Shown: positions 16,269 through 30,274 of the stretch, one piece after another
How positions within the stretch are numbered: position 1 is the first letter of the stretch
How the letters are laid out: every line of letters starts with the position of its first letter
NCBI GenBank assembly: GCA_046761065.1
Contig: JBHIFL010000020.1
Location: 1-52,853, forward strand
DNA: 52,853 nucleotides
Reading direction: 5' to 3'
Origin: Candidatus Heimdallarchaeota archaeon
Lineage (GTDB): Archaea; Asgardarchaeota; Wukongarchaeia; Wukongarchaeales; JBHIFL01
Made by a program: the position numbers and the translations under genes
The notes under the pieces: model-generated
The model's input: only the letters and a program-made list of their open reading frames with translations
What the model was told of the DNA's origin: nothing
Database searches by the model: none

Positions 16269-16658
16269 AGAAGTGATGAGTGGAAGGACGACTGCCGGGA
16301 GCCATGGTTCAGCTGTGGTGCCTGAGGAAACTCCGCCCACTATGAGAAACCCGGATACCGAAAGGTGTAAACCGAGAGGTTTGGCAACGGAATAGAAACG
16401 AAACGCCCGCCAGCAGATGGCGAGGATACGGCTGAGAGGCATTTTAATGCCTCAAGAAGACATGAACAATGTGTCGAGCAAACCCGTTGAGGACGCTGGT
16501 GGAAACGTTGAAACGACCGTCCCCGGGAGTGCAAGCTCAAATTGGTCTCTGGTGATTGCTCTTGAAGAGACGGGTAGAGCGCTTAGATTGATGTCGTCAG
16601 GGTCGAATGAATTGTTTGACCGAAACAAAAGGCGGGTTACTCCCCACACCTCACTTCT
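16269..16658 (+). ncRNA. rnpB: RNase P RNA (archaeal)
   Basis: GAGGAAACTCCGCCC (16324-16338) and AACAAAAGGCGGGTTA (16624-16639) form P4; terminal helix AGAAGTGA/TCACTTCT; AGAAAC, TGAAAC and GTGCAAG conserved regions. Confidence 0.96.
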
Positions 16659-21852: not shown

Positions 21853-22755
21853 TCAAAATAATAAGTGAGCGAATTTTTGGGGGTTAAATGGTACGAGATC
21901 TTTATAGGCCTGTCCAGTCCCCAAATAAATGATAGGTTTTCCTGTGGCGTGTGTGATAGAAAGCGCAGCCCCTCCACGTGCATCTGCGTCCATTTTTGTC
22001 AGTATCGCCGCATGGAACCCGACTGCTGCATTAAACTTCTTTGCTTGGTCCAAAGCATCATTTCCAGCAAGAGCATCCCCTACAAAGATAACAAGGTCGG
22101 GGTTGGTTACTCGTACAATCTTACTGACCTCATCCATGAGCCCTCGTTCGGTTTGCATCCGCCCTGCAGTATCGCTTAGAACAACATCAATTTTCTTAGC
22201 ATATGCATGGTTAATCGCGTCGTATACGACCGCTGCTGCATCTGATTTGTATTGTTGTTTTATTACAGGAATGTGTAATCGTTCGCCGTGTGTTGCAAGC
22301 TGCTCGATACTTCCTGCCCGAAATGTATCACTTGCCGCGAAGACAGAAGTAATGTGTTTGTTTTTTAATAAATATCCAATCTTTGCCAAGGTCGTTGTCT
22401 TTCCCGTCCCATTTACCCCGACAAAGACGAAAACCGCTGGTCTTCCTTCTCCTCGACTTCGTTTGATGACCTCAATCAGATCAACGGTTTTCTTGGGAGT
22501 TAAAATTTGTTGAATCGCATTCCTAATAGTTGCTTTTATATAAGATCGCGTGTCCTCAAGACGTCCAATACGTTCACCAAGGAGTTCGTTTTTCAGTGTT
22601 CCTATAAGGAGCTCGGCAGTTTCAAGTGGGACGTCACTTTGTAATAATAGGAGCTCTAGATCTTGAGCGGCTTTATCTAAGCGTTTTTGAGTTAATTCTT
22701 TTGTCATTACAGCCTCTGCAAAGTTTGTTAGGCCATCCTTGATCCGATCGAACAA
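21853..22755 (-). CDS. ftsY: SRP receptor GTPase FtsY
   Basis: GVNGTGKTTT, DTFRAG, DTAGR, TKMDADARGG, GTGQ. Confidence 0.97.
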   Translation of the reverse strand: MFDRIKDGLTNFAEAVMTKELTQKRLDKAAQDLELLLLQSDVPLETAELLIGTLKNELLGERIGRLEDTRSYIKATIRNAIQQILTPKKTVDLIEVIKRSRGEGRPAVFVFVGVNGTGKTTTLAKIGYLLKNKHITSVFAASDTFRAGSIEQLATHGERLHIPVIKQQYKSDAAAVVYDAINHAYAKKIDVVLSDTAGRMQTERGLMDEVSKIVRVTNPDLVIFVGDALAGNDALDQAKKFNAAVGFHAAILTKMDADARGGAALSITHATGKPIIYLGTGQAYKDLVPFNPQKFAHLLF

Positions 22756-22779: not shown

Positions 22780-23232
22780 TTAACCTTTCGATTGATTTAT
22801 CAACCCTTGTAGCTCAGTTCGCAACTGCTCAAGAGCAGACCTGGCTTGTTCTAGTTGTGTGCCTGTTTGTTGTAAAGCTGTTTGCGCATCTTTCATGCGT
22901 TCTTGAATGATTTCCCGAGCACTGACCATATCTTTTGATGCTGAAACATTAGCTCCTAATCCTATTATCACTTCTTTCACATCTGCCAGTGTTGCACGGA
23001 TCCAAGAATTGCTGCCAATTGGCACAAGGATGTCATCGTCCACTTTAGACTGACTCAGCTCTTCCAAGACTGCTATGGTCAACGTCATCTCTGCGAAGTA
23101 GGAGCTCAATGCTTCATACTGTTTTTCTAAGACTTCACCCTGCAGTTCCAGTTGAGAAATCTGCGCTACAAGCTCATTGATCCTGGTTTGGGGCGACGGT
23201 TCCGTTGTCATCATAACACCTCGTTTTGTCAC
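22780..23232 (-). CDS. pfdA: Prefoldin alpha subunit
   Basis: Coiled coil, ILVPIGSNSWIRA...VIIGLGANV hairpins, coiled coil; canonical synteny. Confidence 0.93.
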   Translation of the reverse strand: MTKRGVMMTTEPSPQTRINELVAQISQLELQGEVLEKQYEALSSYFAEMTLTIAVLEELSQSKVDDDILVPIGSNSWIRATLADVKEVIIGLGANVSASKDMVSAREIIQERMKDAQTALQQTGTQLEQARSALEQLRTELQGLINQSKG

Positions 23233-23486
23233 TCTTTCATAAAGCTAATATCTTCTCCAAGAGCCAAGCGTAGAATCACAGGGTCTTTCACTTCTTCAAT
23301 AGATTTTATCACTTCGGCTTTTCTCACCGAGATCGCCCCTCGCTTTATCCGATGCTTCGACCCTAAATCTGCATAGAGGAGTTCGATTGCATCTTCCTCA
23401 CGAAGGGCCCGAAACTCTTTGCTGAACTCGACAGGTCCCCGCTTTCCTTTGTATATTCCACTTATTCTGAAGATCTGCACTTCCAA
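23229..23486 (-). CDS. rpl18a: Ribosomal protein eL20 (L18Ae/LX)
   Basis: FRISG, FSKEFRA, LYADLGSKHRIKR; TTG start with AAGGAG SD. Confidence 0.93.
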   Translation of the reverse strand: MEVQIFRISGIYKGKRGPVEFSKEFRALREEDAIELLYADLGSKHRIKRGAISVRKAEVIKSIEEVKDPVILRLALGEDISFMKE

Positions 23487-23545
23487 GTACTCAGCTCCTT
23501 AATGCACGAAACTTCCATCAAGCAGAGTATGTGTTCACACCACCG

Positions 23546-23894
23546 AGTGTGTGTTCCCAAACCCGAGCATCACCACGAAACTATGGTTCATTGCCGACTT
23601 GGGGATCTTCCACCTCGATAAGGCCAGAAGTTCCACCTAGCTATCCCACGAATGGTGCCGAAGCAGATAGGGAAGCAATGCTCGTGTTCACAACCAGAAC
23701 AACATCCAATTCGCTACCCCGATTAAGTGATTGCTTAGGTTTCAATTGGTTGCACTTTTGAAGCCGTGAAATGATATAACTCTTGTGAATGGTAGATGAT
23801 TGCATAAAGCTGATAGACGGAGCGTTGGGTAGCGAACCCTTTGATTGCTTATTTTGCGTCTGGGATATACTTCCGATTTTATAGTTCACACACT
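23546..23894 (-). ncRNA. Candidate novel structured RNA (~350 nt) between eIF6 and eL20
   Basis: Nested helices 23546-53/23887-94, 23710-19/23827-36 and 23564-73/23675-84 (G-U pairs only on the minus strand); perfect three-way junction 23641-23670 with two UUCG loops. Confidence 0.7.
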
Positions 23895-24596
23895 TTAAAA
23901 AAGGATATCGATTATTCTAGCACGTTCAATCCCGGTTGTATCCGCCCCACAAAGCCCACCCCCTGCATTTGCAGTTAAACCTGTTGAAATATAAGCATAC
24001 CCTCGATTCACCGTACAGATATCAGTTTTAACTTCGAAAATACAGGAGATCTGCTTTACTTCATCATCACTAGCAAGAGGAGAGACTAACGCGCCTCTTG
24101 AAGTGACGACACACATCGCCCCTACAACAGAAATCCCAGCGAGATTCCGTTGAGCCACTGTGACCCCCAACATATCCTCAATTGCATGGATGTCCTTTTT
24201 ATTGAAAACGGAAGAAACAAGTGCACCTTTGTCATTCACAACGATGACATTACCGAGGGCAGTAATTTTGGAGTCAAGTACACAAACTTCGATCCCCAGT
24301 TGCGCCTGAAGCTCTTCGATTTCTAAATCAGTAGCGATCTGTGGTAAAAGTAACACTCTTGAAGTTGCCACAGCTAGTACTCCCAGGAGACTTGTCCCTC
24401 CAATCATTGATTCCACTAAAGGAACCCGGAGGGCGTTTTTCACCTTTTTCTTGTCCTTTTTATTGAAGAACCCGGGAGGGACTAAAGCAAATTCATCTGT
24501 GGCAAGGATGTAAACCCCAACATTCAAAAGATCCGAGACAATACAGTATGCCGATCTTTGTTCAGTATCTTTATGCACGACAATCCACGTCTTCAT
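23895..24596 (-). CDS. eif6: Translation initiation factor 6 (aIF6/eIF6)
   Basis: NVGVYILATD, TALGNVIVVNDKGALV, TVNRG, GADTTGIE. Confidence 0.93.
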   Translation of the reverse strand: MKTWIVVHKDTEQRSAYCIVSDLLNVGVYILATDEFALVPPGFFNKKDKKKVKNALRVPLVESMIGGTSLLGVLAVATSRVLLLPQIATDLEIEELQAQLGIEVCVLDSKITALGNVIVVNDKGALVSSVFNKKDIHAIEDMLGVTVAQRNLAGISVVGAMCVVTSRGALVSPLASDDEVKQISCIFEVKTDICTVNRGYAYISTGLTANAGGGLCGADTTGIERARIIDILF

Positions 24597-30152: not shown

Positions 30153-30274
30153 TGGCGCCGGGGGTGGGATTTGAACCCACGTGATGGCAAAGCCATCAGC
30201 AGGTCTCTTGCATAATCCTCCTTTTTAACAGAGTGACTCGAGCCTGCCGCCGTAGTCCACTTGGCTACCCCGGC
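30153..30274 (-). tRNA. tRNA-Ser(CGA) with 32-nt intron at 37/38 (30205-30236); CCA encoded
   Basis: GCCGGGG acceptor, GCAGG-CTCGAG|A-CCTGC anticodon arm, long variable arm TGATGGC/GCCATCA, GGGTTCAAATCCC. Confidence 0.95.

Follow-up and report, generated by a model that had tools for sequence, protein, structure and literature searches.

The 52,853-nucleotide window analysed here, contig JBHIFL010000020.1 of a Candidatus Heimdallarchaeota archaeon (assembly GCA_046761065.1), has 408 nt between the stop codon of its eIF6 gene and the TTG start codon of the gene for ribosomal protein eL20. We consider it probable, at roughly three chances in four, that this gap holds the 3' end of a cassette from an array-less system derived from CRISPR and resembling the class called ARAMP (Asgard RAMP). 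The copy would be truncated on its 5' side and decaying, and its structured tail would be the RNA partner of the cassette proteins, now retained as the leader of eL20. An earlier note, written from the letters of the window, had instead placed in positions 23546-23894 a single large structured RNA of about 350 nt, held together by a closing helix and two arms.

The extra DNA in the gap is foreign to its site. The earlier note held that eIF6 and eL20 normally abut in archaea, and comparison with relatives bears this out: among 11 distant relatives, 8 have a spacer of about 25-40 nt (as estimated from the ends of tblastn matches), and the spacer is 145 nt long in the closest ones, namely L230, L231 and L234, whose eIF6 is 87-88% identical, and L232 and L233, at 68% identity. 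The window and L230-L234 share the gene order Ogg, DJ-1/PfpI, eIF6, eL20, prefoldin, FtsY. In the window, on the minus strand, eIF6 occupies 23895-24596 (stop codon 23895-23897), eL20 23229-23486 (start codon 23484-23486), prefoldin alpha 22780-23232 and FtsY 21853-22755; close homologs of the eIF6 protein match PF01912, and PF01775 (Ribosomal_L18A/LX) was assigned to genes of the syntenic loci. When the covariance model of the element described below (R1) was run over the L230-L234 loci with filters off, the best score was 4.6 bits within the spacer and 5.4 bits anywhere, and the element was not found between eIF6 and eL20 of the distant relatives either. Judged by these alignments, the extra DNA is a genuine insertion, as the earlier note had supposed, and it is absent from relatives at 68-88% eIF6 identity. 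Its base composition is that of the neighboring genes (G+C 0.40-0.50), whereas other intergenic stretches of the window have a G+C of 0.29-0.35.

The junctions can be placed on the same alignment. Window positions 23867-23894 (minus strand, as are all features of the gap) correspond to the start of the native spacer of the element-free L230, L231 and L234, and at the other end GGAGCTGAGTAC-TTG corresponds to the native GGAGCTGAAAAC-TTG. Thus, about 100 nt of native spacer appear to have been replaced by the insert, with the 3' junction inside the ribosome-binding hexamer AAGGAG (23495-23500), where element-free relatives have GAGGAGC. At the 5' junction, 33 nt (23834-23866) are without similarity to other copies of the element or to the native spacer. 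The native 145-nt spacer (L230:3306-3450, L232:3688-3832, L234:1360-1537) is itself well conserved between the organisms at 68% and 87% eIF6 identity, for example in CCAACTAGCCCCCTAACCGAAGA, and is far longer than the roughly 30 nt of distant relatives.

The insert belongs to a repeat family. By DNA identity, the gap matches about 16 other sites in its own genome (G000) at 67-73%, always across window positions 23494-23829; the conserved unit is 23485-23833 rather than 23546-23894. A profile of the final ~190 nt, hereafter the tail, found 45 copies in this genome and model R1 found 46, dispersed over at least 25 contigs. The window tail scores 156.7 bits, compared with about 200-210 bits for the best copies. 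Among 40 other genomes of the phylum, one had a match to R1 (G010:C257:2577-2850, L034). That locus, in a different family of the phylum, consists of a solo tail with a remnant of about 57 codons of the cassette gene ORF2 introduced below, and is a fossil like that of the window.

Many copies lie directly 5' of unrelated genes, in the orientation of the downstream gene. Read from their N-terminal sequences, these genes appear to encode GMP synthase (guaA), a YchF-type GTPase, an XPD-like helicase and a fumarase beta subunit, among others. Similarity between copies stops at AAGGAGC, followed by a short A-rich spacer and the start codon. We considered whether GGAGCGAAAAAC is a general start context of this genome and rejected the idea; because the context is not general, the fixed junction must be a property of the element. 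Fusion of the tail, at a fixed offset, to an open reading frame (ORF) of at least 85 aa was seen for 10 of the 15 best-scoring copies and for 2 of the 23 weaker ones. Such fusions recur in other assemblies: upstream of ychF, the copy at L198:561-752 still has its ORF2 gene, and that at G000:C32:8559-8750 has only a remnant. Upstream of a cyclophilin-like gene, the site is likewise occupied in both G000:C15:30941-31131 and L204:10778-10969. In these pairs, copies in this genome and on contigs from other samples are at different stages of decay. Many other copies are degenerate and away from genes. On contig C115 (10.4 kb), seven degenerate tails lie within 10 kb, 0.7-2.5 kb apart and mostly with no gene after them, which could be either an element graveyard or a loose cluster; C131 is similar.

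Full-length cassettes, present on contigs C25, C36 and C4 of the same genome, consist of two overlapping genes before the tail, ORF1 (388-555 aa) and ORF2 (296-320 aa). When the gap was compared by blastx with five intact ORF2 proteins, the stretch 23833-23584 was found to hold pieces of ORF2 residues 233-316, scattered over three frames with stops (best E 5e-14). These matches show the upstream part of the insert to be a dead fragment, about 85 frameshifted codons long, of the gene for a ~316-aa protein with a putative RAMP and a Cas10-type HD domain (RAMP-HD); the final ~90 nt of this C-terminal remnant (23584-23833) overlap the tail. Among 5.8 billion proteins we found 31 relatives of ORF2 and 19 of ORF1, which are unnamed or annotated as hypothetical, several of them from Candidatus Heimdallarchaeota. 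Across 400 genomes of the phylum, 26 have more distant relatives of ORF2, a metagenome scan with the ORF2 alignment gave 8 loci, and no relative was found among viral contigs.

Searches of Pfam and NCBIfam with the two proteins gave only sub-threshold matches to SAP, RAMPs and HD, and PADLOC gave a weak Csm3 assignment for ORF1. The AlphaFold2 (AF2) model of the ORF1 core (predicted local distance difference test score, pLDDT, 64) matches almost only Cas7-family chains, the best being the type IV-A Csf2 (8rc2_A, Z 9.6, 166 residues aligned), followed by 8yhd_A (Z 8.4), 8bmw_I (8.1) and 7y80_A (8.0), with type VII, Csm3, gRAMP and I-D proteins among the types represented; ORF1 also has an inserted SAP-like domain. 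In ORF2, residues 137-288 resemble the HD domain of Csm1/Cas10 (6ifk_A, Z 9.5, root-mean-square deviation 3.2, 141 aligned; 6mua_A, Z 8.1), and the HD motif is invariant among relatives. The N-terminal 115 residues are ferredoxin/RAMP-like, with Cas6 (6fjw_A) at Z 5.8, a score tied with many unrelated folds and obtained with a low-confidence model. A Foldseek search of ORF2 against the Protein Data Bank gave nothing significant; the structural matches come from a wide structure search (VIA). As modelled, the gene pair, a Cas7-like protein and a putative small RAMP carrying an HD nuclease domain of the Cas10 type, agrees with what has been published on the ARAMP class. This class is described as array-less and type III-derived, with Cas7/Cas5 homologs and nucleases, in Asgard archaea, and its mechanism as enigmatic (PMC8730458 and PMC12669027, in passages summarizing Makarova et al. 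2020, CRISPR J 3:156). Consistent with an array-less system, no tandem repeats were found within 8 kb around the C36 cassette and no CRISPR-like array in window positions 20-27 kb, where the sole entry was a 20-nt unit repeated 2.2 times at 23525-23567 (Tandem Repeats Finder score 51), which lies inside the P5-P6 part of the tail and is not like a CRISPR array. A distant paralog of the Cas7-like ORF1 (E 2e-16) lies at G000:C12:14538-15116.

The tail itself has a conserved fold. The first alignment, of 21 copies from the window's own genome, was made with MAFFT, blind to structure, and the fold was read off it; the second (A4) comprised 40 distinct sequences, ten of them from other assemblies, fitted to the model. 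The fold consists of five stem-loops, namely P1, whose loop is UUCG, the long P2, P4, which encloses the hairpin P4a, P5 and a two-part P6, followed 3' of P6 by single-stranded AAGGAGC and a spacer. In the two alignments, 87.4% and 86.8% of cells at consensus pairs are paired, falling to 32-46% and 34-45%, respectively, when the partners are slid. Compensatory changes occur at 19 of 42 pairs among the 21 copies, a count reached by 0 of 500 shuffles, and at 26 of 42 among the 40 sequences (2 of 500 shuffles); the remaining four measures were reached by 0-2 of 500 shuffles in the first alignment and by 0 of 500 in the second. In the larger set, 110 cells are compensatory compared with 47 +/- 5 in shuffles, and all nine helix segments covary. 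G-U cells outnumber C-A cells by 144 to 50, which means that the fold is better on the minus, gene-sense strand. Across copies, the ORF2 C-termini read through the P1-P2 region in differing frames, or not at all, while the DNA is conserved throughout, which argues that the constraint is not on protein. Comparative analysis supports the tail as a conserved, structured, RNA-like module on the minus strand.

In the window, this 192-nt module occupies 23485-23676 (R1 match of 156.7 bits, E 5e-46) and keeps 36 of the 42 consensus pairs. The P1 hairpin (23655-23666), kept in nearly all copies, has 3 of its 4 pairs here; P2, a long hairpin of three segments with a 7-nt loop (23614-23652), has 14 of 14, six of them G-U, and is 93% paired across the family. 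P4 with P4a (23564-23601) has 8 of 9 (4 of 5 in P4, 4 of 4 in P4a), and all five P4 pairs are compensatory in the family. The P5 hairpin (23536-23551), which also covaries in the family, has 5 of 5, and the two-part P6 (23504-23535) is degraded here to 6 of 10, compared with 84-86% in the family. The module ends in the AAGGAG ribosome-binding site, at the 3' junction to native DNA. Words of the form GTGTTCACA are spread over the tail, the gene remnant and native DNA and therefore represent no single motif.

The tail matches no catalogued RNA. Rfam at the gathering score found nothing in the window besides an archaeal RNase P RNA (16276-16651, plus strand, 193 bits) and one tRNA match (30156-30274, minus strand), whose 119 nt are long enough to contain an intron, and both lie outside the gap. 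Searches at E up to 10 over 23300-24100 gave nothing relevant, and at E up to 1 for 14 other tails gave nothing. Two leads, a resemblance to U6 snRNA (GCUUCGGCAGC, GAUGACAC) and a hammerhead-like GAUGAG...GAAAC core, received no support from the Rfam models and were dropped.

The tail is also tied to the cassette genes. In the C25, C36 and C4 cassettes and in the independent assemblies L063, L064, L197-L200 and L204, the 3' end of an intact ORF2 runs into the tail, and this overlap is still present in L063, whose ORF2 has no more than 45% identity. The first gene of the operon is preceded by a further tail copy at C36 and in L205. The regions upstream of tails C36a and C50b share a promoter-like stretch, with a transcription factor B recognition element (BRE) and TATA box, and the region upstream of the tail in L205 has a similar one. 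The best-kept cassette (G000:C36:20653-23554, L010) has a tail at either end, and an XPD/DinG-like helicase gene comes after it. In another Asgard family, distant RAMP-HD genes of ~275 aa have on either side, at a distance of ~1.1 kb from each other, copies of a different conserved element of ~125 nt with compensatory hairpins by eye, which has 22, 14 and 2 copies in three genomes (G040, G316 and G020); an example is G040:C4:753037-754239, with 21 other places in the same genome. That RAMP-HD genes have an element of their own in another genus means that a cognate structured repeat seems, on sequence comparison, to be a general companion of these genes.

The best-surviving alternative, which we nevertheless regard as unlikely, is that the element is a selfish, non-autonomous DNA repeat, similar to a miniature inverted-repeat transposable element (MITE) or a solo long terminal repeat (LTR), whose hairpins act as DNA, for instance as single-stranded recombination or integration sites, with neither an RNA function nor a RAMP partner. 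The family is indeed multi-copy and dispersed, with many degenerate copies off genes; direct copies flank the cassettes at C36 and in G040, as terminal repeats would; and the thermodynamic z-scores are weak. Against it speak the excess of G-U over C-A, indicative of a fold on the gene-sense strand, and the promoter-like stretch directly upstream of some copies. Its orientation is always that of the downstream gene, its 3' end is a ribosome-binding site, and the link to RAMP-HD genes persists across lineages despite a changed element sequence. Neither terminal inverted repeats nor target duplications were seen at the junctions examined, no transposase-like gene, reverse transcriptase or integrase was found in the unit, and the sole end-to-end inverted repeat (23546-53 with 23887-94) spans native DNA and is not kept in other copies.

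Less probable still is a cis-regulatory leader, that is, a protein- or ligand-sensing 5' untranslated region whose dispersal would have built a regulon of guaA, ychF, eL20 and further genes, perhaps under the control of the cassette proteins. Such a leader would account for a module that ends in a ribosome-binding site with constant spacing to the start codon, that precedes the first gene of the cassette at C36 and L205, and whose best-kept copies are the gene-fused ones. Yet many copies have no following gene, the downstream genes are without evident common function, and close relatives do without the module at eL20. Moreover, no covarying alternative pairing hides AAGGAG: a riboswitch-like masking by the CUCC arm of P6 was considered and rejected, in that inspection revealed no covariation and the arm changes to non-pairing sequences.

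The design of the earlier note, an autonomous RNA of about 350 nt processed from a ribosome-biogenesis operon or acting as a ribosomal protein (r-protein) leader, is very unlikely. In its favor, the inverted repeats on which it was built do exist in the window (23546-53 with 23887-94, 8 bp; 23710-19 with 23827-36, 10 bp; 23560-70 with 23678-88; and CCAGA with TCTGG), the choice of the minus strand was correct, as the 144 G-U and 50 C-A cells of the family indicate, and the lack of hallmarks of SRP RNA, RNase P, tRNA and group I/II introns that it noted agrees with the Rfam result. Of its two UUCG tetraloops, the canonical cUUCGg corresponds to P1, a hairpin that nearly every copy has; the second hairpin is not kept. 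The remaining helices fare worse: in 13 paralogous copies, the closing helix, the CCAGA/TCTGG helix, the arm 2 helix and the helix closing a three-way junction are each kept at a minority of positions. The alignment with the spacers of relatives further means that the closing helix joins native DNA (its 5' arm, 23887-94) to P5 of the insert, which includes its 3' arm. The 10-bp helix, perfect here (10 of 10), is conserved in part: among the 12 paralogous copies that span it, between 5 and 9 of the 10 pairs are present, with a few compensatory changes, and it lies within coding sequence. Four of the five helices of the 350-nt design are absent from paralogs. The note had listed a lack of covariation among homologs as a refutation; the 3' 192 nt do covary.

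Folding energy and gene content also speak against the design. Compared with dinucleotide shuffles, the 408 nt show no excess folding stability (z +0.24 on the minus strand, -0.04 on the plus strand), and the perfect inverted repeats are borderline by the same standard, with one 10-mer compared with 0.079 expected (P 0.053) and four 8-mers compared with 1.2 expected (P 0.066). The note had named a conserved protein frame as a refutation, and the upstream 40% of the proposed RNA is the remnant of the conserved ORF2 frame. A role in the ribosome-biogenesis operon is contradicted by the presence of the module before guaA, ychF, the fumarase subunit, the XPD-like helicase and others, and a role as r-protein leader by the empty site in close relatives and by the unrelated genes that the module precedes elsewhere. 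A single large RNA with a closing helix and two arms is therefore contradicted by paralogs, shuffles and gene remnant together, the proposed fold being mostly chance; among the three identities that the note had offered, an RNA-based mobile element is nearest to what we find. One helix retains some interest as a possible conserved extra helix: the truncated copies here, at guaA and at fumarase have three independent starts within ~6 nt of the 5' arm of the 10-bp helix (23710-23836, within the ORF2 remnant), which may thus mark the true 5' end of a longer unit of ~345 nt, although it sits in coding sequence. That the open frame of 82 codons at 23641-23889 is a real small protein gene is scarcely credible: although it is open and of coding-like G+C (0.40-0.50), it is one of three frames with pieces of ORF2, starts in the native spacer, leaves the homologous frame and is not kept in paralogs, and is better seen as an accident of ORF2 decay.

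Under the reading that we prefer, a truncated ARAMP-like cassette end, the cassette or its end would have entered the eIF6-eL20 spacer in an ancestor, displacing about 100 nt, and its genes would then have decayed from the 5' side. The tail would have been retained because it now provides an essential gene, within the eIF6-eL20-prefoldin-FtsY operon, with its leader and ribosome-binding site; we propose that tails survive after gene loss because they carry the ribosome-binding site of the host gene. Across the family, the tail would be transcribed, with some copies using a promoter of their own to make the cassette leader, and the Cas7-like/RAMP-HD complex would bind it as its RNA ligand, in the way that Cas6, Cas5 and Cas7 bind a CRISPR repeat. 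The cassette may spread by way of its end, a Shine-Dalgarno (SD) sequence plus start codon, joined to translation-start regions of the host, and solo tails could be products of deletion or of recombination between the tails on either side of a cassette; copies that start at P1 could come from the latter. A Campbell-type integration of a circular ORF1-ORF2-tail molecule through SD-ATG was also considered and rejected: six 5' junctions are without a common sequence, no shared 5' junction having been found among the six cassettes.

A more specific version of this idea is speculative, and we would sooner bet against it than for it. The ~190-nt tail could be the missing RNA subunit of ARAMP, a long scaffold to which the Cas7-like/RAMP-HD complex binds, with the DNA that follows the tail, a translation-start region of the host, supplying the guide. 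In that case, ARAMP would be a mobile element homing, under RNA guidance, to regions of ribosome-binding sites and start codons, and the eL20 copy would be one of its fossils.

Several observations weigh against a truncated ARAMP-like cassette end with an RNA tail. The structural matches reach only middling Z scores, and confidence in the model of the N-terminal RAMP of ORF2 is poor (pLDDT below 50 in parts). Most ARAMPs are described as having a distinct Cas1 (PMC8730458), and no match to Cas1 (PF01867) was found in the window's own genome, which is 91% complete, though a divergent Cas1 could escape the profile. Neither PMC8730458 nor PMC12669027, in the parts that treat ARAMP, names an RNA component, though the original description may have noted one. 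The thermodynamic stability of the tail is ordinary (z +0.20 for the window copy, family mean z -0.53), and the covariation counts derive from paralogs and close relatives, which are not independent, and in A4 from sequences fitted to the model. In the window copy, P6 is degraded and the consensus fold reaches only -15.7 kcal/mol, so that it may have ceased to function as an RNA. Transcription and processing of the tail are predictions from sequence, no public RNA run having been found to contain this organism, and the proposed mode of spread is drawn from the junctions only. With regard to spread, all four DNA sequencing runs had the filled allele and none the empty one, with the qualification that these runs are possibly the source of the assembly.

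Taken by itself, the window gives a more modest result, the decaying fossil of a system. The wider interest lies in the system: ARAMP and its haloarchaeal cousin HRAMP are array-less CRISPR derivatives whose action is enigmatic, and a covarying module tied to their genes would be a candidate RNA partner. If the scaffold-RNA version were true, such an RNA might be a general feature of the class, as elements of different sequence flank RAMP-HD genes in other Asgard families. The solo copies show, in addition, how a genome has been reshaped, with a ribosome-binding region supplied to essential genes, eL20, guaA and ychF among them. As a member of the Asgard archaea, the host is in the group closest to eukaryotes, and mobile RNA-linked elements beside its genes are of evolutionary interest.

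Known systems resemble this one in different respects. Like r-protein operon leaders, the module is a structured stretch directly upstream of an r-protein gene in an operon, but it is neither conserved at this site in relatives nor specific to r-proteins. Like solo LTRs and MITE-like remnants, it forms direct repeats that flank a coding unit, occurs in solo and 5'-truncated copies, and has been co-opted before host genes; unlike them, it has no detected reverse transcriptase, integrase or transposase and neither inverted ends nor target duplications. With ARAMP, the full cassettes share an Asgard host, a Cas7 homolog and what may be a small RAMP, with a nuclease domain, the lack of an array and an HD domain nearest to that of Cas10/Csm1. 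They differ from ARAMP as described in their ~190-nt structured tail, with dozens of solo copies, and in the lack of a Pfam Cas1 match, and the window holds only a decayed cassette end rather than a working cassette. The comparison with CRISPR repeats and crRNA, as handled by Cas6, Cas5 and Cas7, rests on repeated structured units that flank or follow cas-like genes and on homologous RAMP proteins; CRISPR repeats, however, are 25-40 nt long and arrayed with spacers, whereas the tails have 190 nt and five stem-loops, and are dispersed, with no spacers found. Finally, OMEGA systems (TnpB/IscB with omega RNA) differ in their proteins, which are RuvC nucleases rather than RAMP and HD, and in the IS200/605 ends, which are absent here. 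Like them, however, this system has a candidate RNA module that overlaps the 3' end of a nuclease gene and reaches the end of the mobile unit, and the DNA after the tail, which varies between copies, could by conjecture serve as a guide.

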